NCBI GenBank assembly: GCA_022813865.1
Contig: JALDZX010000022.1
Location: forward strand, 1-64,000
Source of the DNA: Xylographa opegraphella
Taxonomy: Eukaryota
DNA length: 64,000 nt
Direction: 5' to 3'
Position 1 is the stretch's first letter. Every line of letters begins with the position of its first letter. This document shows positions 24,160 through 58,890 of the stretch, one piece after another. The translations under genes and the position numbers were made by a program. The notes beneath the pieces were generated by a model that did not search any database, was not told the origin of the DNA, and saw only the letters and a program-made list of their open reading frames with translations.

Positions 24160-26001
24160 TCAGCTGAGGTAGACACCATCCCATCCCTTGCCACCAGCTA
24201 CATTGCCCCCAACTGCTTCGCCGTGCATGATACCCTCAACATATGCGTATCCGATCAGCCAGTGGAGGACATGTGGACGATCTCGGTCGAAGAACAATTT
24301 GTTGTTCAGTCGCAGGATAAATGGTGTACGTCCACCCGCTAGGATGGCTACTTTGTCGCCTGCCAGGGTTTGAAGAGGGCCCAGGCCGATAAAGCCACTC
24401 CTTGTGCGGAAGAAAATGCGGGTTGTGACAAAGGGGAGCAGATGTTCCAAAGCCTGAGCGGTGTTCTTGTTCCGGAACTCGTCAGGAGTGTAGCCGCCAG
24501 CCTTCGTGACCCACTTATGCCACTTTTGGAAGAAGTCGGATCTTGTCGAGTCGGGATTTGTAGCGTTATGATGGTGAGACCTTTGTTTGGGGACCTTAGC
24601 TGGTCCCCAGATAGTATTCTGCGTAGCTGAAGATGAAACAGGAGATCGATGATGTGTTCCAGCGATCCGCTCCCACTCGAGGAAACAGGCGTTGAAAGCC
24701 TCGGCAAGTTTTTCTATAGACTTCACGCTCTTTAGTAAAACTTGGCTGGTGCTCAACAGCACAATCTCGTCGATATGATAGGCCCCTATAGCTAGCACGG
24801 ACCTTCCTAGAATAAGACGAGGGTTCGGTTTCATGTATCCGCATGAATTATATTCGAGTGTGCTTTTGAGAAGCGTACCATGTCCCCGCAGGTCTTTCCT
24901 CCAGTCGGGCACCCACGAAGGTAATCCAGGTCCTTGCTTCTTGAACGTGGAGTATAGAAAGATATCGAGATTTTGTTCGGATTCAATGATGGCCCGCGTG
25001 GTCTGCTGGTAAACATCGGAAACAGGCAGTGTGTAATCGGGCCGCAAGTTCATCTCCACCTCTGCCAAAGCCAAGAGACCATAGACCTTATCCCTTTCAT
25101 CCGAACACAAACCATTGGAAAAGGACCTTGTGGCCCATAAGAGGCTCCTCTTTTCGATCGCTCTCGTTCTGTTATCGATAAGCTTATACATGTTGTGTAT
25201 TGTATTCTCATGTGTTGACCCCAAGGATGCCTGCAAATCTTTTCTACTGCAGCATACGAGATGTTTCTTGAAGCTGTCAGCAAAGGAGCGGAAGACACTC
25301 CAGGGTAGCGTCGTTCTGCCGCACACAATATCCGCCTCCTTGCAGAGGGCGATCTCCTGAACGCACCATATTCTCAACCACCAAGGTCGGTTCATCAGCT
25401 TCTTCACAGCTTTGAAGCGCTTAGCAACTTGCATCTGCCAGGCGTGTCCATTCCATCTGGGCGCGAAGAAGATATCTGATTGCTTGAAATGTATATCCGT
25501 ACTTAATGCAAGCATGGTATGCAGAGCTAGATCGCTGTCATCCGATGCTTCACCCAACCAGGCCAGAACACGAGTAGCGGACCGGTATATCGATCCCATC
25601 TGTTGTACTTGGTGGGACCGCTCCTGCAAATTCGCTTGATCTATAGAGAGTGCATCAACCCAGAGCCAACGCGGATCATATCTATCCCGGAGGTATCGTA
25701 GAGCATCCCAAAGGTTGGATCCAATGCAGATCTCATGCCCGTCTAGTAAGATTCGCTGGCCGGAATGATTGGTTCCCCACGCATAGGACAATGCTTCATA
25801 CGGGGGACGGTCATCCAAAGAGATCTTGTTCAACTCGCAGACAATAGGTGCCGAACCAGTACCAGGATATAGACAGATCAGACGAATCTCGTGATCTGCT
25901 GGATCCAGTCGATGTTTCGAATAGATTGCAGAATACTCCGGGGACTTCGAGCCGGAGTATAGATTTTGAAGCTGGTTCTGAAGCCAGGTATTCGATTGCA
26001 T
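24160..26001 (-). CDS. HET-domain (HET-6-like) heterokaryon incompatibility protein
   Basis: YEALSYAWG, LWVDALSIDQ, QVQQMGSIYRSATRVLAWLG, WWLRIWCVQE, DERDKVYGLL, LPSWVPDW, LIGYAYVEGIMHGE. Confidence 0.95.
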   Translation of the reverse strand: MQSNTWLQNQLQNLYSGSKSPEYSAIYSKHRLDPADHEIRLICLYPGTGSAPIVCELNKISLDDRPPYEALSYAWGTNHSGQRILLDGHEICIGSNLWDALRYLRDRYDPRWLWVDALSIDQANLQERSHQVQQMGSIYRSATRVLAWLGEASDDSDLALHTMLALSTDIHFKQSDIFFAPRWNGHAWQMQVAKRFKAVKKLMNRPWWLRIWCVQEIALCKEADIVCGRTTLPWSVFRSFADSFKKHLVCCSRKDLQASLGSTHENTIHNMYKLIDNRTRAIEKRSLLWATRSFSNGLCSDERDKVYGLLALAEVEMNLRPDYTLPVSDVYQQTTRAIIESEQNLDIFLYSTFKKQGPGLPSWVPDWRKDLRGHGTLLKSTLEYNSCGYMKPNPRLILGRSVLAIGAYHIDEIVLLSTSQVLLKSVKSIEKLAEAFNACFLEWERIAGTHHRSPVSSSATQNTIWGPAKVPKQRSHHHNATNPDSTRSDFFQKWHKWVTKAGGYTPDEFRNKNTAQALEHLLPFVTTRIFFRTRSGFIGLGPLQTLAGDKVAILAGGRTPFILRLNNKLFFDRDRPHVLHWLIGYAYVEGIMHGEAVGGNVAGGKGWDGVYLS

Positions 26002-28398
26002 CGTGACGGGTGGTCACTGGCGGACTACTGTTTGCGTAGCTTAGCCTGGCATAGTGACCACGATCGGTAGCTGCTTCGCTTCTGGGGGATTTCCTCACAG
26101 GTCCGACAAAGGAAGCGAGTCTTACGATGGCACACTCTTGTCGCCTCCTGTAAGAATCAGGCTGGGGATATTTCCAGAGCTGAGGCTTGAGCTCAAATAG
26201 CAATGCACTCATGTGCGAGTGAGGAATAACGCAGCAGACAGAATCAAGTCGTGTAACCAGGAAGGGGAACAACAAAAGAAAATCATGTGTAAAATGTATC
26301 AAGCTTTCCTCAAGATTGGCATTGCTATCAAACGACAGCCGGCATCGTCCGAGACTATGCGTGTCTGAGGCACGGCCTGTGATCAAGAGTCATCTCATTA
26401 TCATTGATGAGGAATTCGGGGAAGCCCAAAGTCAGGGGCGCGAGGCAGACTGCTGAATCTGGGCTGAAAGTGTCTGGCGCTTGACAGTCTAGAACAGCCT
26501 CCGAGCGCTTGGCGCAAGCCATCTGGCGTCTCCGCCAAACGTGCCTCTGTATAAGTGGTGGATCGAGAGATGCTCTGGCAACCGTAATAGAGAAATACAG
26601 CTGGCCACAGCTGGCCGCAGTCGTGAGGGTGAGAAACAAGAAGTGTCCGGCTCGATCACGATGACCCAGGATCGAGAGAGGTCGTGAAAGGATTATTTGA
26701 CGTTTGGTTAGGCTCGTCCTAGTGGGGCCGACCTCCAAAACTTCGTAGTAACCGGCTAATATTGGGGACCGAGCCGCCTACCTAGCCTGGAGACTTAAGA
26801 GCCTCCTCCCCTGACACAATATTCCCGACACAATACTAATGTCCGAACTCCTATTTCTTTCGCCATCCGTGTGTCCAAATTTACGTAGTACTTTCGGATT
26901 TCAGTAGTCTCAACGTCTACTTAGTACCAAGGCACTAAGTTATCATTGCTAGCTCGAGCCTTTGAGCGACAGAGAAACCTGAAAAGCTACATAAAAGTGA
27001 CTTTTTGGGGAGTTGCATTGTATCACCGCGAGCCGAGCTACCTCGCTGACAGGTACCTTACTTTACTGCTCAAGTCGCGAAAAAAAAAATATGGATAGTT
27101 GGAAACTGATCAGCAGGAAGAGGACATGAACTGCGAGTTGTCCACTGAGCTCACCTCGCTGTTCCACATTACTGAACAGAAGTCACTGGAATTTTTTCAA
27201 ATGGAAGGGTCTCCTGTCACAGATACAGTATTGAAAGTTGAGGAGCAACTGTCAGGTCTTCAGCCGCCGAGTATACCTCGGTGCTACTCAACGACGAGGA
27301 AAAGCAATATTTCAGGCAGTTGGACACCGAAGATATGATACACCATTGGGATTCTGTAGCAAGATTTATCACCATCGGTAAGCTTTTTACGGCAGAGAAT
27401 GTTTGAACCAGCTCCGGTTTTGGAGATATCAAGTTGAAGTTGCAAGCGGATCGAGAATGAGTTATAGAACAAGGGCCTGTGCTTTAACATCTGCCCCCGT
27501 CGCAAGATGAACCAATCAAAATGCATTTCTGCAATAGCTAAGGCCAGAGCATAATGGACAGGTAGGTATCCGGAGGAGCACCTTACGTTTGAAAGATGCT
27601 CTCAATACTCCCCTATCATCAGCTTTAAGGCGGGGACTTTGGAGGCGGCCTTGATCCAACTATATTGGATGCACGCAGAGAAGCGGTGGTTCTAGTGGCA
27701 GTGCTCCGTGAGCTTGGGTGCGCAAAGTTAGTGACAGATCTGCGTTGGAGAGCGCATTGGCAAAGCGAGAAGGGTGTCTATTCAGATAACTTGGCATCTT
27801 GAGCAACTTCCAAGGGAAACGTGCAACACCCTCTAGCAAGCTTGTCGATGTTGAGTATGAAGCTTGCGATTCAGCAGGAAATGAAGGAGTAAACTTCTAG
27901 GAGAAGGGCTTGAAAAAGAACTTAAGGGGTCAGGGCCTCACGGATAAGAATCACTGGTAGTGGGTCATGGGTTTCGTAGGATGTGCGTTCAGAGGTGGCC
28001 ATTGTGACTGACTCTCTGTAAGATCCTGGAAACCAGCGGATGACCCTACCATACCCTGTAGATCTTCGGTTGGTGGAAGTTCAAGCAAGCTTCTTACATA
28101 TGGTCCTTCAACTCCAGATATGCGCTCATAAAGTGTGCCTCACGCTCGATATCTATTACATCTGCCCTCACACATACAACTCTCTTTCTGTAGAAGAAAA
28201 AACGATTCCTGCGTACGGAAGTCATCGAGACAAAATCGAGCCACAGTGGAAGTCGCGATACAATCAATGTACTGTTATGTAAGATACTACACGCTCCTTT
28301 GAACGGAGAAAGCATATCGATGGCGGAGCGGAAACCATGACCGGCATATCGGATGTTCCGACGAGGCTTGGCATTAGCTCCTAACCACTCTCGCGGTT

Positions 28399-33482: not shown

Positions 33483-36400
33483 TCAATTCCAACCTAGAGA
33501 GTTTTCTGCCATTACTGGAGCGCTGATGTTTTGTCGTCCAGAGCTGCCGCCGCTTCGACCGCTGCCTCTCGAGTCGCGCCCGCTGTAGCCATATGTGTCA
33601 TAATCGCCGCCGCTGTAGCCTCTTGCTCCACTCATTAGTGCCGTACCGGCACCGCTCCTGATCTCTCCATGGCTTTGCGACATACTCGATGTGTCAATCA
33701 GAGAGGGCGATCTGCGGTGAATTGAATTCCTCTTCCGGTATCTCTTGGCAACGAAGAACATTGCGGCACCGTAGAGCGCAGCGCCAGCAACAACCCCAAC
33801 ACCAATACCAACAGAAGCAGCTTTCACAGAACTCGAGTTGTCAGTACCCGCTCCTATTGGCGCGCCCTCGGTAACGACGGCACTGGCGGCGGATGTGGGC
33901 GAGCCAGTATTGCTTCCAGGATTAGCACCACCGAGATCACCACCAGCAAGAATCGGGAAGGAAGGATTGATCATGCTGACGAGAGTATTGACACTGTCGT
34001 TAGGGTTGTCGTACAGTGCACTGGTAGGCGTATGGATGTCAAGACTCAGATCATTGACGAAACTGGAAGGAATATATGCCATAGCTAGAGTCGTGACATA
34101 ACCTAGTGTAGCCGTTGTATCATATGGTTGAAGAGTCTGCATCGTGATGCTTGATACGTCGAGGCCAAGACCATATGCTAATCCCATGGGTAGATACGTG
34201 AACAGCTGATCTATTGATTTATAGTTTGAAACCACAAACTCGTAATTCAAGGGGAACAGAAAGCCGACCTGGACGAGAGTCGTGTTGTCCGGCTGTTGTG
34301 GGATTATACCACTAGGTGGGGCGACGACACGGGGCAACGCTGATGGAATCCCAGTAGGAGCGTTGGAAGCCGTGGAAGGCACGGGACTCGAGGCGGTCGG
34401 ATCGATAAATATGCTGGTAGGTAAGTACTGCGATGTAAGAGCATCTGATCCAGTAGGCACAAGGCTTGTTGGACCAGTAGTAGCAAATGAGACAACAGGA
34501 CTGATAGTGCTTGGGGCTGCGCTCTCAGATGCACTGCCGGAGACGACAGGCAATGCAGTGCCTGTGAGGGAACTCGTAAAAGTTGTCCCTGAGGCAGTGA
34601 TCACGGTTACATCAGATAAAGCTGATACAGATTCAGACGGAGACGAGCCGTTTGTGGTACTTGTCGCACTTGGCGGCACTCCGGTATCAGTGAGTGTACC
34701 AGAAATCTGTGAACCAGAGACCGTCGATGCTTGAGACACACTGCTTATAGCAGTCCCTCCAGAGATAGATCCCGAAGCGGTTGAAACCGGAACAGATACA
34801 ACTCCTGAGCTCAACGAGCTACTCCCACCAGTTATAGAAGCTCCCGGCAGGGTAGATCCGAAAGTATTGGTAGTAGAGGCGGGTAGGGCACTTATTAATG
34901 AAGAGCCAGTGACCCCACTAACGGTGCCGGTAGTGGCTGTTACGGAACCGGTGGGTGAGACTCCGATCGTGGAGATAGATGCACTCGCAGAAAGTATGAA
35001 GGACAGACTCACTGCAGTATCTGTCGATACAAGAGTGCCAGTCAGGAGGGTTCCAGAGGTCGTGATTGGTGGTATCACTACAGGGAGCGATACAGTTGAA
35101 CTTGCCACAAACGTGTCGGTAGGTATCGAGATCAGGGTCTCTGTTGGAGAAGATGTAGAAATTGGGATAATTTCAGTACCTGTATTAGTTGGCGACGATA
35201 CAGGAACAGGAAGTACCGAAACAGTTGTCGGCGCTGAACTCGGGATAGAAATTGTTTCTGTCCCAGTAGAAATATCAGTCGGCGTGAGAGTTGGAACTAT
35301 TGGTATCACGGTGGTGTCTGTTGGTGTAGGTAGTGGGAGTGACACAACAGGGGATGTTCCAGTCGGAGCAGAGATTGGCAGTGATACTATTATAGAGGTA
35401 TCTGTCGGGGCCGAAAGTGGGAGAGACACAACCACCGAAGTGTCGGTCGGGGCAGAGATAGGTAGTGATAAAACCACAGAAGTATCAGTCGGTGCGGAAA
35501 CTGGAGATATCACCACAGAAGTCCCAGTCGGTGCGGAAACCGGAAGGGATACTACTATAGAAGTTCCAGTGGGAGCAGAGACAGGAAGCGATATGACCAC
35601 AGACGTGTCAGTCGGAGCGGAGATTGGAAGCGATAGGACCACAGAAGTGTCCGTCGGAGCGGAGATCGGAAGCGAAAGGACCACGGAAGTGCCAGTTGGA
35701 GCTGAGATTGGAAGTGATATAACTAATGAGGTATCTGTAGACGCAGAACTTGGAGGTGGTATTAACGTGTCAGTTGGCGAAGAGCTTGGAATAGGTGCAG
35801 CTGTGGTGTCAGTCGGTGCAGAAATCGGAACCGGCACGACCGTATCTGTCTCCGTGGCAGTTGGGATGGGACTCGGTACCGGCGAGAGTGGAGTGTTAGT
35901 AGGCGCAGAAGTTGGGCTTGGTGTAGCCGTCTCCGTCGGAGCAGAGATTGGAACGGGCACCACAGTATCTGTTTCTGTGAGCGTTGGTAATGGCGCAGAA
36001 ACAGGAGCTGTTCCAGTAGGAAGCGGAGCAACAATGGACGACAATATCGACTGGATTATTGATGATAGTACCGAAGGAACTGCAGTTGGAAGATCCGTTG
36101 ACAAAGGAACCACCGAGGATATAGGCAGCGGTAATACTGTGTCGGTTTGCTGAGCACTCGTTGCATCGGAAGAAGCAGAGACAGGGACTACAGTCGGGAC
36201 AGAGCCTAGAGTTACCGAATCTGTGGTTGGAATACTCGCGGGAACCACTGAGGGGAAGATTGTCCCTGTAGATGTTCCACTAGGCGCAGCTGAAGCTGGC
36301 ACAGTGGGCGGGACACTTTGAGAAACCGATACACTATTCGATGGTTGAGACGAAGGAACAGCAGTATCAGTCGGGGGAGGCGGGGTAGGCGTATCTGGAG

Positions 36401-37196
36401 GTGTGTCCGAGGGTAATACTGTAGGTGTGGGTGTGTCCGAAGGGAGTACTGTAGGTGTTGGAGTGTCCGACGGGAGTACTGTAGGTATCACTGTGTCTGA
36501 GGATATTACTGTAGGTATCGCTGTGTCTGAGGGTAGTACTGAAGGTGTCGCTGTGTCTGAGGTTAGTACTGTAGGTATTGATGTATCCGTAGGTGTATCT
36601 GTTGGTAAAGGAGGAGCTACTGTAGGAGTCTCCGAAGGTTGAGCCGTGGGTGTAGGTGTAGATGTATCCGTAGGAGTGTCTGTTGGCAAAACTGTAGGTG
36701 TAGGACTGTCGGTCGATACATCTGTAGGCGTAGGTGTGTCCGTAGGGGTCTCCGTTGGCGGGGGAGGAGGAGAAATGGTTGGAGTGTCCGTTGGTACATC
36801 TGTAGGAAGACCTGGCGAGGAAAGCGGACTGGAAGTCGGTAATATATCTGAAGATTGCAAGGACTCCGTCGTATCGGAGATACTTGATACCAAACTGCTG
36901 AAGAGACTTTCGAGAGATGATGTATCTCGCCGCGAAGCCAGTGATGAATCTGGTTGATCTGCGGTTGTCACCGTATCAGGCAATGTTGCGGGAACGGAAG
37001 TCGGTGTCTCTGCAGGCGTTGATGCTGGTGTCGTAGTGTTTGAGAACACTTGACGCTTGACATGCCGGGGGAAGTAGTGCCTACGCTCCAGAGCCGTTTC
37101 CCGTGGTTGCGGAGGTACATTGAAACCGCATACTGGACCAAGGACAGACACAAACGCAAACGACGCCACGAGAGCATTTGGAGTGGTTCGGACCAT
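33483..37196 (-). CDS. MSB2: Signalling mucin, Msb2/Hkr1 type
   Basis: Signal peptide, long S/T/P-rich repeats, juxtamembrane VQVGFLFPLNYEFVV domain, one TM helix, and cytoplasmic tail ending ISAPVMAENSLGWN. Confidence 0.92.
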   Translation of the reverse strand: MVRTTPNALVASFAFVSVLGPVCGFNVPPQPRETALERRHYFPRHVKRQVFSNTTTPASTPAETPTSVPATLPDTVTTADQPDSSLASRRDTSSLESLFSSLVSSISDTTESLQSSDILPTSSPLSSPGLPTDVPTDTPTISPPPPPTETPTDTPTPTDVSTDSPTPTVLPTDTPTDTSTPTPTAQPSETPTVAPPLPTDTPTDTSIPTVLTSDTATPSVLPSDTAIPTVISSDTVIPTVLPSDTPTPTVLPSDTPTPTVLPSDTPPDTPTPPPPTDTAVPSSQPSNSVSVSQSVPPTVPASAAPSGTSTGTIFPSVVPASIPTTDSVTLGSVPTVVPVSASSDATSAQQTDTVLPLPISSVVPLSTDLPTAVPSVLSSIIQSILSSIVAPLPTGTAPVSAPLPTLTETDTVVPVPISAPTETATPSPTSAPTNTPLSPVPSPIPTATETDTVVPVPISAPTDTTAAPIPSSSPTDTLIPPPSSASTDTSLVISLPISAPTGTSVVLSLPISAPTDTSVVLSLPISAPTDTSVVISLPVSAPTGTSIVVSLPVSAPTGTSVVISPVSAPTDTSVVLSLPISAPTDTSVVVSLPLSAPTDTSIIVSLPISAPTGTSPVVSLPLPTPTDTTVIPIVPTLTPTDISTGTETISIPSSAPTTVSVLPVPVSSPTNTGTEIIPISTSSPTETLISIPTDTFVASSTVSLPVVIPPITTSGTLLTGTLVSTDTAVSLSFILSASASISTIGVSPTGSVTATTGTVSGVTGSSLISALPASTTNTFGSTLPGASITGGSSSLSSGVVSVPVSTASGSISGGTAISSVSQASTVSGSQISGTLTDTGVPPSATSTTNGSSPSESVSALSDVTVITASGTTFTSSLTGTALPVVSGSASESAAPSTISPVVSFATTGPTSLVPTGSDALTSQYLPTSIFIDPTASSPVPSTASNAPTGIPSALPRVVAPPSGIIPQQPDNTTLVQVGFLFPLNYEFVVSNYKSIDQLFTYLPMGLAYGLGLDVSSITMQTLQPYDTTATLGYVTTLAMAYIPSSFVNDLSLDIHTPTSALYDNPNDSVNTLVSMINPSFPILAGGDLGGANPGSNTGSPTSAASAVVTEGAPIGAGTDNSSSVKAASVGIGVGVVAGAALYGAAMFFVAKRYRKRNSIHRRSPSLIDTSSMSQSHGEIRSGAGTALMSGARGYSGGDYDTYGYSGRDSRGSGRSGGSSGRQNISAPVMAENSLGWN
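35330..35730 (-). repeat. Degenerate 39-bp (13-aa, SLPISAPTDTSVV-like) coding tandem repeats in MSB2
   Basis: About ten copies visible in the translation; synonymous positions have diverged. Confidence 0.85.
36380..36600 (-). repeat. 30-bp (10-aa, PTVLPSDTPT-like) coding tandem repeats in MSB2
   Basis: Repeating gtgtc(c/t)ga...tactgtaggt units on the + strand. Confidence 0.85.
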
Positions 37197-37267
37197 TTCG
37201 GAAGACTTTGTATATATATGGATACAGTAATTAAAGATAGTTGGTTTTGTAGAACGAGCGGTTCAAC

Positions 37268-42343: not shown

Positions 42344-43376
42344 ATGGAAGCTTGTGAGTTCTTTAGGTGCTACATACCGTCACGTTTTCATACCGCTAAC
42401 GACTGTTGCGGTATAGATAATCCGTTCGCAAAACGGGAGTCGCACTCTCAACGCTCTCTGCTTGCTTACAAACTTCTTACCGTTGCATCGTGGTTCCTCG
42501 TCCACGTAGTGGACATTCACTTTGGCTTCAATGCGCCGGTCGGGGATACATCCGGGAGGTCCATATGGGGACAGAATAAAGCTCATCCCACGCCGTTCTC
42601 ACTAAATCCACAGATTGTTGATATTTACTGGTAAGAAGCTCAGACTGGCTAAGACGTAACAAGTACACTAAGCAGAATTTAGGATTGTTATCCTAATACT
42701 TCAGATCTACTACCTCTTCATCCTGTGGTCCAGTAATGCCGACGATGTGACTCCAGTTGCAAATATCGGGTCACACTTTATCATCAACAATCTTCTACAA
42801 TTCGCATTTGTCATGATCTGGGTACATTACTTTCCGGGACACTTCTGGATTGCAGAGATCATGCTTCTCCTCAACTTCTTCAATCTATCTTCCCTCTACT
42901 TTCGTCATTCGAGAATGCCTCGTGTGATACATATTGCTGTCGTGAGCGGTCCGCTAGCGTGGAACTTTGTGGCCATCTTTTGGTGCGGTGCAGCTATGGT
43001 GAATGCGCAGAACTTGGCTGCAAGGATTTTGGCCAACATCGCGATTTGGGGCATACTCGGGTACGGACTGTTTATGCTGGCTGCGTTCAAGGACTATACC
43101 ATGGGATTCGAGCTGAGTATACTTGCCGCATGTAAGTAGCTCCTGCTCGCCTCTGGAAATTTATTGACGATTTTTGTAGCTCTCGGGGCTCATCAGTTCT
43201 TCATCAAGACTTTTGCCTTTCAGTGGATCTTCGCATTCACCATTATGTCGGTCCTCTTTCTTGCCACCCTTGCTATTGCAATTCCCGGCTTTTTTGGCAA
43301 AGAATTGAGCTTCCGGAGAGAGGGGGATATCGTAGATGCGGATCGCGAAAGACAGCCGCTCTTGAATGATGCTTGA
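42344..43376 (+). CDS. Fungal membrane protein (DUF1774-like); exons 42344-42353, 42417-42630, 42683-43131, 43180-43376
   Basis: NPFAKRESH, VGSHF-like IGSHFIINNLLQFAFVM, VVSGPLAW, QWIFAF, ERQPLL. Three GT-AG introns keep the frame. Confidence 0.8.
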
Positions 43377-43823
43377 AATAGTTGCCAAGGATGGCAAAGC
43401 GAGCGTATGGAAAGGTAGATGAGCATAGGTCAATAAAAATTGCAATGAGAGACGTATGAGGTAGAGGACGATATTGTCCATAGGGGGACGGACCTATTCT
43501 AGGAAGCATTGCAAGGAGTTTTCTCTACTTCTAGTAGCCGTAGAAGTTCCAGGAGTGATGTACTCCTATTGAGGGGTCGAGAAGACCTTGCAGAATATCA
43601 GTATCACCATTAGTACATTAGATAATGAGCAGCAGTGTTTGAAAGCACAACAACGGTTGTATTGTTCCATGTCTAGGCTGAGCCGTGCTCCTGCCCCAAC
43701 ACTTATGTTAGCCAATGTCTTCCACAATGTCCATTTCTGGTAAGTTGAAAATCGTCTTCCCCGCTCAGTTGTTTGATGCATACAGAAATATATATCTATA
43801 AGATTTTGCTCGAACAAAACCAC

Positions 43824-43973
43824 GGGGAATTAGCGCAATGGTAGCGCGTGGCTCTCCTAGTACTCGGACGAAAGTCGTAGTCAAGCCAAGGTTGAGGGTG
43901 TAGGTCTTTCCTCAACTTTGATTTTACATTCCCCAGTATACTGATTTCCTACAGTCGAGTCCCTTGTTCCTCG
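43824..43973 (+). tRNA. tRNA-Arg(CCT) with a canonical intron (43860-43882) and a spliceosomal-type intron (43900-43954)
   Basis: Acceptor stem GGGGAAT/GTTCCTC, D-arm GCGC-AATGGTA-GCGC, anticodon stem TGGCT/AGCCA with CCT at 43856-43858, T-arm GAGGG-T|TCGAGT-CCCTT, discriminator G. Mature length 72 nt. T5 run at 43987. Confidence 0.9.
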
Positions 43974-44317
43974 ATATGTTGTCTTGTTTTTGCAGTTTTT
44001 GGGACTATTTGGCCTGCGTTGTGGGCGGAACACGGACCGCCAAAAACCTCGCTCGCTTGGATCGTCAGTTGATTGATGTCTGTCTCGTCAGTTTCTTTTA
44101 GCTCTCTTCGAGTTGCACTTTCGGATCAGATTATCGTTCCAGCATGCTGCGTGTGCTTAAGAATTTCACTTTGTAATGGTCACACAGTTGATCACGGGCA
44201 TACACATTCATGGTATACGTTGAAGCTACTGGAAGACTATTGAACAATAAATTGGCGCTAGCTTTTGTCCCAGGCATATTCTTATCTCCTCAATAAACTT
44301 GAGCATACCCCCGAACG

Positions 44318-45368
44318 ATGCCTTTCTCCCACCACAGTCATTCGGGTCAATTCTGCCTTCATGCGAAAGACGACCTGGAAGCCATTGTCCAAACGGCCAT
44401 CAGTAAAGGGATGGGGACTCTGGTCCTGACCGAGCACATGCCTCGGGACCAGGAGACGGACCTGTACCCAGAAGAGGTTGGTTCCTCGCCCACCATGAGC
44501 TCCGCACGCTGAGTGGGGTTTAGATCGAAGCTGGCAGCACGACGGACAGCCTGTTCAAGACATTCGACGACTACTACATCGAAGCAAAACGACTGCAGTC
44601 GTCATACTCGCTACAGATAGACATCCTGGTTGGCGTGGAAACAGACTGGATACGCCCATCTTCTGAGCAGCTTATAGGAAACCTCATAGAAAAATACAGC
44701 TTCGACACCCTGATCGGCTCCGTGCACCATGTCCATGGTATTCCCACGGACTTTGACCGGGAAACATACGAACGGGCTCGGGCGGTATCTGGAGGCACGG
44801 ATGAGATGCTCTACGCGGATTACTACGATGCGCAGCTGAAGATGCTGGAGGCAGTGAAGCCACCGATTGTGGGCCATTTCGATGTCATCAGACTTCTGAG
44901 CGATGACCCGAATGCGAGCATGAAGAAGCACGACGTGGTGTGGAATAGAATCTTCAGGAATCTATCCTTCATATCAAGCTACGGTGGTATGCTCGAAATC
45001 AACACGGCGGCACTCCGGAAAGGGATGGATGAGCCGTACCCGCAAGGCGAGGTCTGCCAGGTTCGTTGCCGATACGCTGTCGGGTGATTTGGATGGCTAA
45101 TGAAGCCCAGGAGTTTTTGAAGATGAACGGAGCGTTCGTCCTGTCGGATGACAGTCACGGCGTTGGTCAAGTGGGATTCGGCTTCACGAGGGCGGTGGAG
45201 TTCATGGAAGGTATAGGTGTCCGGACGTTGATCGTCCTGCAGCGGGGACTGATGACACGAGACGCTCGCTTCCGAGGAGTGTTCGGACGGCCGGTGCGTG
45301 TCCCAGACCTTCAGAAGAAGCATACGTTCTTCCAGGCTCCAGGCACTGCAGCAAACAGCCGGCCATGA
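44318..45368 (+). CDS. HIS2: Histidinol-phosphatase (PHP family); exons 44318-44476, 44524-45060, 45111-45368
   Basis: MPFSHHSHSGQFC, LTEHMPR, GSVHHV, VGHFDVIRL, EINTAALRKG, LSDDSHG. Confidence 0.94.
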
Positions 45369-58735: not shown

Positions 58736-58890
58736 GGCCTGATGGTACGAAAATACGAAATCGAGTTGAGTTTGTCTCTTTGCTGACAATTTGCACAGGT
58801 CTAGTGGTATGATTGTCGCTTCGGGTTCGCCTGAGTATCTTAGATACTTAGATTTGTGACAGGCCCCGGGTTCAAATCCCGGTCAGGCCC
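58736..58890 (+). tRNA. tRNA-Pro(CGG) with a spliceosomal-type intron (58745-58798) and a canonical intron (58826-58854)
   Basis: Acceptor stem GGCCTGA/TCAGGCC (perfect), TG|GTCTAGTGGTATGAT, anticodon stem GTCGC/GTGAC with CGG at 58822-58824, T-arm CCGGG-TTCAAAT-CCCGG, discriminator C. Mature length 72 nt. T5 run at 58897. Confidence 0.92.

Follow-up and report, generated by a model that had tools for sequence, protein, structure and literature searches.

Results

Two inserts in a tRNA-Arg(CCU) gene

Positions 43824-43973 of the window, by which we mean the whole 64,000-nt stretch of DNA analyzed here, hold a tRNA-Arg(CCU) gene that is interrupted twice, by a canonical 23-nt intron at position 37/38 and by a 55-nt GT-AG insert between T54 and T55 of the T-loop (Table 1). 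In the raw window, neither ARAGORN nor Rfam detects a tRNA, and tRNA is not among the five sub-threshold matches that Rfam returns at E<=10. Upon in-silico excision of 43900-43954, ARAGORN calls a tRNA-Arg(cct) with a 23-nt intron at 37/38, and the spliced product has all the stems and invariant bases of a cloverleaf, with 21 of 21 pairs kept (18 Watson-Crick and three G-U). A previous reading of this DNA, made from sequence only, had taken the intact stems as an argument against decay; this holds for old decay, which the 21 pairs disfavor, but not for a recent inactivation. The smaller insert carries both marks of a canonical intron, namely the 37/38 position and the pairing of C32 with the antepenultimate intron base, while the 55-nt insert, also considered as a canonical eukaryotic tRNA intron, is ruled out as such by its position at 54/55. 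AGG, the codon that the tRNA would read, accounts for 53 of the 299 Arg codons in 11 long reading frames.

Table 1. Coordinates of the features discussed in the text (window positions, unless an orthologous locus is named).
Feature	Position	Strand	Basis or remarks
DUF1774 membrane-protein gene	42344-43377	+	introns 42354-42416, 42631-42682, 43132-43179; same-genome intron baseline
TATA-like element (TATATAT -35 to -29, TATAA -27 to -23)	43789-43801	+	sequence; putative function
CAA triplet at -9 to -7, likely Pol III start region	43815-43817	+	sequence; putative function
tRNA-Arg exon 1, nt 1-37	43824-43859	+	A box intact; anticodon CCT 43856-43858
Canonical 23-nt tRNA intron, 37/38	43860-43882	+	ARAGORN; helix pattern, C32/G check
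tRNA-Arg exon 2, nt 38-54	43883-43899	+	3' anticodon strand, variable loop, 5' T stem, T54
55-nt spliceosomal-type intron, T54/T55	43900-43954	+	donor GTAGGT, branch-like TACTGAT 43939-43945 (A 43944), acceptor CAG
Insert segment complementary to tRNA nt 36-53	43909-43926	+	pair probabilities, fold, similarity test
Insert segment exactly complementary to tRNA nt 1-7 (decoy acceptor strand)	43928-43934	+	predicted pair probability
tRNA-Arg exon 3, T55 to discriminator G73	43955-43973	+	ARAGORN after excision, orthologue alignment
Two T5 runs, Pol III terminator-like	43987-44000	+	first one 14 nt past the gene
HIS2-like histidinol phosphatase gene, PHP domain	44318-45365	+	introns 44477-44523, 45061-45110; syntenic marker
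tRNA-Pro(CGG) gene	58736-58890	+	exons 58736-58744, 58799-58826, 58856-58890; canonical 29-nt intron 58827-58855; T5 from +7
54-nt spliceosomal-type intron, nt 9/10 of tRNA-Pro(CGG)	58745-58798	+	donor GTACGA, branch-like GCTGAC 12 nt from end, CAG
tRNA-Arg(CCU) next to HIS2	L001 1501-2954; L006 257-1613		two other fungi

The window is, judging from its sequence, nuclear DNA of a Xylographa-like lichen-forming ascomycete. In a search among longer proteins, the product of the gene upstream of the tRNA, a DUF1774 protein, is 93% identical to a protein of Xylographa bjoerkii, 89% to one of Lambiella and 81% to one of Ptychographa; in the same kind of search, the downstream exon product, a PHP-domain histidinol phosphatase, has 85% identity with a Xylographa soralifera protein. 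This HIS2-like gene begins 345 nt past the tRNA, and its end at 45365 is the end of the alignment, with no stop mapped there. The five mRNA introns of these two genes, placed by homology through spliced alignment, provided a same-genome baseline for the signals of the 55-nt insert.

Splice register and signals of the T-loop insert

The sequence-only reading had proposed a GT-AG intron between T54 and T55, and its position, its length and its signals are all as claimed. Among all deletions within 43883-43973, a single one yields the 3' half of L006, an orthologue that lacks the insert. It spans 43900-43954, begins with GT and ends with AG, and the boundaries thus cannot slide, as had been asserted; this deletion restores an uninterrupted orthologous sequence at 70 of 72 nt. 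The further contention that a random insertion would rarely supply donor, branch point and acceptor in register also withstood scrutiny. Using a GT[AG]NGT donor, an RCTRAY branch sequence 6-25 nt from the end and a YAG acceptor, which is the usual fungal consensus and was chosen after the insert had been seen, only one in 127,890 window 55-mers (both strands) qualifies, and it is the insert itself. With these same post hoc criteria, the product of the single signal frequencies among the window 55-mers is 1.5e-6.

The donor matches GTAAGT at five of six positions (four to six in the mapped mRNA introns) and has the GTRNGT form, while the branch A, in an RCTRAY context, lies 10 nt from the intron end (10-17 nt in the mRNA introns). 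The acceptor is CAG, the length is within the mRNA intron range of 47-63 nt, and the middle of the insert is pyrimidine-rich (75% C+T). The donor-plus-branch score of the insert is 11, compared to 8, 9, 10, 10.5 and 11.5 for the five mRNA introns, and its signals equal or surpass those of four of these five. Of the 9,933 GT..AG segments of the window that are 45-65 nt long, real introns among them, eight reach this score.

No bulge-helix-bulge (BHB) is present at the insert, as the central helix reads W-x-g-W (two Watson-Crick pairs, one G-U and one mismatch), the outer helix x-g-x-x (none of four Watson-Crick) and the inner helix x-W-g-g. At the 37/38 intron, by contrast, both the helix pattern and the C32-G pair are present. 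A target-site duplication, which together with near-identical copies elsewhere in the genome would mark an introner-like element or another transposon-derived intron, is not seen at the junction of the insert, whose register is unique. All the sequence tests open to us favor the prediction that the insert is a U2-type spliceosomal intron. The two ends of the insert form a 6-bp inverted repeat (TGTAGG/CCTACA), which was considered and discarded, its pair probability in the precursor being 0. A perfect 10-nt palindrome at 43934-43943 overlaps the branch sequence; by a rough estimate, about 5% of 55-nt segments would contain one by chance.

Complementarity of the insert to its own tRNA

When reverse-complemented, the insert matches the tRNA in two blocks, at nt 1-7 (7/7) and at nt 36-52 (14/17), in the same order. 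The two-block identity score of 18 compares with a shuffle mean of 10.8 and is reached by none of 2,000 shuffles, in a test that was picked after the match had been seen; among the unrelated window 55-mers sampled, one of 3,198 has this score. By duplex energy, the complementarity is ordinary (best duplex p 0.56, summed p 0.10, helix score p 0.033), and nothing comparable was found in the tRNA-Pro and L004 inserts described below or in nine mRNA-intron candidates. The insert departs from full complementarity at three positions within nt 36-52 and at a fourth, nt 53, in each case by a C:G to T:A transition, a pattern that fits a decayed inverted duplication and G-U-tolerant RNA pairing alike.

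The precursor folds discussed here are model predictions. They include a 12-bp hairpin, formed by 43887-43898 of exon 2 with 43909-43920 at pair probabilities of 0.83-1.0, whose 10-nt loop contains the 5' splice site. The T stem is missing from the predicted fold, the anticodon stem is weak (0.17 or less), and a decoy acceptor helix has a probability of about 0.42 vs 0.56 for the true acceptor stem. Such a decoy strand could lower the yield of tRNA. An unusually stable fold was also considered and rejected, both for the insert alone (z -0.99) and for the whole precursor (z -1.04). The complementarity could record an origin by inverted duplication, could have been selected for keeping the precursor unfolded, or could be luck. 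In the first case the intron would be old, given four transitions in 18 nt, and the conservation of the exons would be a sign of selection, an argument to which we attach little weight.

A second split gene, tRNA-Pro(CGG)

In an excision scan, each of 38,218 GT/GC..AG candidates of 40-100 nt was removed from the window and the remainder rescanned for tRNAs. Only three excisions create a tRNA, namely the Arg gene, a tRNA-Pro(CGG) gene (Table 1) and, at the latter, a Ser(GCT) call that was rejected as a by-product in which the Pro insert is left in place. The 54-nt Pro insert can be removed in four equivalent registers, just one of which is GT-AG, and it lacks a BHB. Its last G substitutes for nt 9 of the A box, the promoter losing T8 only, and the B box is intact. 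A motif scan of the window for T arms and D arms retrieved only pieces of the Arg and Pro genes. Both detectable tRNA genes in the 64 kb are split by GT-AG inserts, and both were missed by ARAGORN and Rfam, which makes it likely that the tRNA sets of such fungi are undercounted. The Pro pattern has no matches in viral contigs, which is expected for fungal DNA and uninformative.

Orthologous Arg(CCU) loci

A 20-nt pattern from exon 1 retrieved 12 loci in metagenome contigs, which flank identity resolves into eight distinct groups. All 12 carry the same tRNA, to which the spliced window gene is identical at 62-70 of 72 nt, the best matches being L003, L006 and L011 (70/72 each). The T-loop insert occurs at none of the 12 loci, which thus show no conservation of this intron across species, and it may be young. 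L004 and L007, which are 99.6% alike and form one of the eight groups, carry instead a different insert of 49 nt (GTAAGT..TAG) in the variable loop at 46/47, with a weaker branch match, 21 of 21 pairs kept and no BHB (checked in L004). L009 and L010 are insert-free genes whose exons are one base apart from those of L004 and L007. Overall, the Arg insert at 54/55, the Pro insert at 9/10 and the L004 insert at 46/47 are unrelated, and the donor, branch and acceptor motifs in each of them point to a class of such introns.

ARAGORN miscalls the L004 and L007 genes as tRNA-Leu(TAA) and, owing to the 23-nt canonical intron, the L003 and L011 Arg(CCU) genes as tRNA-Glu(TTC). With flanks of 12-1500 nt available, HIS2 adjoins the tRNA in two of the 12 loci, L006 (at 360 nt, same strand) and L001 (tRNA on the opposite strand), and DUF1774 in none. 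Because the window tRNA precedes HIS2 as in these two fungi, we regard it as an old locus and not as a stray copy.

The window exons deviate from all 12 orthologues at nt 5 and nt 9, both changes being G to A, and these are two of 60 otherwise invariant columns, 20 of which are fixed by the search pattern. Both are structurally tolerated, the change at nt 5 turning a G-U pair into an A-U pair and that at nt 9 conforming to the A-box consensus. Searches with the 20-nt Arg pattern (no matches in prokaryotic genomes or viral contigs) and with a T-loop-junction pattern (none in viral contigs) gave what is expected for fungal DNA and are uninformative.

Transcription signals

The A box of the Arg gene is intact, and the insert splits the B box by parting G53-T54 from the TCGA core, where the DNA now reads A,G; G53 is a TFIIIC contact (PMC11724288). 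A contiguous B box (GWTCRANNC) is absent from 43000-44500 on either strand, leaving the gene short of a complete type 2 Pol III promoter, and a search for a substitute B box near the gene found none before 44523. Upstream lie a TATA-like element and a CAA triplet (Table 1), and CAA at -10 to -3 raises Pol III transcription (PMC13578239). The roles given here to the TATA-like element and to the T5 runs follow the same source. The window gene has a TATA-like match at -36 to -27 but just two of the 12 orthologous loci do, a rarity that fits compensation in the window gene, in a small sample with some short flanks. For tRNA genes of Cyanidioschyzon merolae whose A and B boxes are split, transcription from TATA elements further upstream has been proposed (PMC3978253), which by analogy offers a precedent for how the window gene might be transcribed without a whole B box.

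The longest T run within the 150-nt Arg gene is T4, an oligo-T terminator-like run follows the gene (Table 1), and a run of T4 or longer lies behind the gene in all 12 orthologues. No T5 occurs inside the Pro and L004 inserts, which is weak evidence since only one of the five mapped mRNA introns has one.

Two intron-like strings lie upstream of the tRNA. The first, at 43740-43785 on the plus strand (46 nt, GTAAGT..CAG, weak branch), is 39 nt from the gene and on the same strand; the second, at 43783-43691 on the minus strand (93 nt, GTATGC..GCTAAC..CAG), overlaps it. Both are unsupported by any reading frame and may reflect chance or hint at non-coding Pol II transcription.

Discussion

The anatomy of the gene, the unique register of its insert, the quality of the splice signals, the orthology and the recurrence of such inserts lead us to consider it probable that this is a working nuclear tRNA-Arg(CCU) gene that gained a U2-type intron in its T-loop, and whose precursor would be processed by the spliceosome first and by the tRNA endonuclease afterwards. 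That spliceosomes act on RNA not made by Pol II in fungi of this kind, as seen with rDNA and U6 introns, was counted in favor of spliceosomal splicing here. The steps of transcription and splicing that we infer would start with a precursor of about 170-180 nt, which Pol III transcribes with the help of the upstream TATA, the A box, which is intact, and what is left of the B-box core, and which stops at the T5 run. As long as it contains the insert, this precursor could not form a T arm, and exon 2 would be held in a hairpin by its complementarity to the intron, so that no cloverleaf would be available. The major spliceosome would then use GTAGGT, the branch A at 43944 and CAG to release a 55-nt lariat and join T54 to T55. 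Following this, the cloverleaf would fold, RNase P, RNase Z and the CCA enzyme would trim the molecule, and the tRNA endonuclease would take out the 37/38 intron, to yield a 72-nt (+CCA) tRNA reading AGG. The spliceosome is placed ahead of the endonuclease because no cloverleaf could exist until the insert is removed.

An alternative that we deem unlikely is that of a young pseudogene, in which an intron that landed by reverse splicing or by capture during DNA repair broke the B box and silenced the gene while the exons remained undecayed, with AGG being read by another Arg(CCU) copy or through wobble by Arg(UCU). Budding yeast can dispense with its single Arg(CCU) gene, and the window gene is the only one, compared to its 12 orthologous loci, to carry the T-loop insert and the exon changes at nt 5 and nt 9. 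The insert, moreover, splits the B box at a base contacted by TFIIIC (PMC11724288), and a review takes insertions that lie in the D and T arms of tRNA genes in eukaryotes to be, for the most part, signs of a pseudogene (PMC4090602). Against silencing, however, both tRNA genes of the window are split and yet intact, the gene sits at an old syntenic locus by HIS2, its exons contain no disruptive change, and terminator-like, TATA-like and CAA elements are all in place. AGG is also an ordinary codon in this genome, even though this point is weak, as wobble could serve.

Within the reading of a working gene, Pol III is the most likely source of the precursor. A small share of the probability of that reading goes to a tRNA cut from a capped Pol II precursor, driven by a TATA promoter of its own or by read-through from DUF1774, which would be spliced like an mRNA and release the tRNA through RNase P and RNase Z. 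Such a route would accommodate the broken B box, the strong TATA-like element and the intron-like string upstream on the same strand, and Pol II transcripts are the normal substrates of the spliceosome (PMC8527467). Intron-like strings are nonetheless common (50 in the window), and the terminator-like T5 run kept behind the gene, together with the T4 or longer runs of the orthologues, argues against Pol II, as does, weakly, the absence of T5 from the gene and from the Pro and L004 inserts.

It is very improbable that the insert is an ectopic intron removed by the tRNA endonuclease, as in C. merolae or archaea, with GT-AG signals that are incidental. C. merolae does have T-loop introns (at 55/56), in genes whose A/B boxes are likewise split and which have TATA elements upstream, as well as relaxed motifs and introns without a defined BHB (PMC3978253), but no BHB was found at the Arg, Pro and L004 inserts, and all three of these independent inserts have a donor, a branch and an acceptor. 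Least credible of all is an insert that is a templated inverted duplication of the tRNA left by DNA repair, with splice signals due to chance or unused, as this would account for the two ordered reverse-complement matches and their score, but would leave the in-register signals unexplained, and the complementarity is not unusual by duplex energy and is missing from the Pro and L004 inserts; as the origin of a real intron, such a duplication is compatible with the working-gene reading that we favor.

Several known systems resemble parts of this arrangement. MRNA-type introns occur in the U6 snRNA genes of S. pombe and many other fungi (PMC5855946), and they share with the Arg insert the short U2-type form, the canonical signals, the location in a gene for a small structured RNA of the Pol III class and the scattered, lineage-specific sites. 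U6, however, is a component of the spliceosome and a tRNA is not; in S. pombe U6 the B block lies within the intron, whereas the Arg insert destroys the B box; and the tRNA-Arg precursor needs a second, unrelated splicing system. Lichen rDNA also has spliceosomal introns, and yeast removed one of them from transcripts made by Pol I (PMC8527467). Here the likeness extends to the fungal group, the size class (57 nt in one example) and a non-coding host RNA not made by Pol II (PMC8527467), while the difference lies in a multi-copy rRNA transcribed by Pol I from an external promoter as opposed to a tRNA gene whose promoter is in its exons. The BHB introns of C. merolae, nucleomorphs and archaea are similar in lying outside 37/38, the T loop included, in cutting the A or B box, in the upstream TATA and in the 37/38 intron being removed last (PMC3978253, PMC4090602), but the tRNA endonuclease cuts those at a BHB, whereas the Arg insert lacks a BHB and has spliceosomal signals.

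Reviews regard the splicing of tRNAs and that by the spliceosome as unrelated systems (PMC12530127), and the string 'spliceosom' is absent from a tRNA-intron review (PMC4090602) and from a 2026 review of tRNA genes (PMC13578239). Our search, in which subscription journals were thinly covered, found no publication on a spliceosomal intron in a natural tRNA gene. Bhattacharya et al. reportedly described, in 2000, rDNA spliceosomal introns of lichen-forming and other ascomycetes. Koehrer, Vogel and Domdey are said to have engineered, in 1990, a yeast pre-tRNA with a pre-mRNA intron that the yeast spliceosome removed, a construct that would show a yeast spliceosome to be able to splice a pre-tRNA, but an artificial one, whereas the gene studied here is natural.

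A natural tRNA that needs both splicing systems would widen the substrates of the spliceosome to tRNA, and an intron that breaks the B box raises the question of how transcription of a tRNA gene proceeds when the main element of its promoter is lacking. Anticodons that appear to be missing in such fungi may, moreover, be hidden by spliceosomal-type introns, and the Arg locus offers a precisely dated site of intron gain. These results also bear on the proposal that ectopic spliceosomal introns slow the synthesis of the translation machinery in lichens (PMC8527467). We put forward only tentatively, and consider it doubtful as a whole, a scenario for the entire lineage in which spliceosomal introns have spread through the tRNA set (two of the two genes seen), the spliceosome has become obligatory for tRNA maturation, transcription is TATA-driven and poor in TFIIIC, and the intron is perhaps an inverted copy of the tRNA that pairs with the exons to keep the precursor unfolded. 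If this were true, the order of the two splicing systems would be fixed, and the supply of the AGG-reading tRNA would be tied to the activity of the spliceosome.

Other features of the window

Away from the two tRNA genes, the minus strand of the window encodes a HET-domain protein (PF06985) at 24163-26013 and has, at 33486-37262, an open frame of 1,259 codons that is rich in Ser, Thr, Pro and Gly and resembles secreted or wall proteins.
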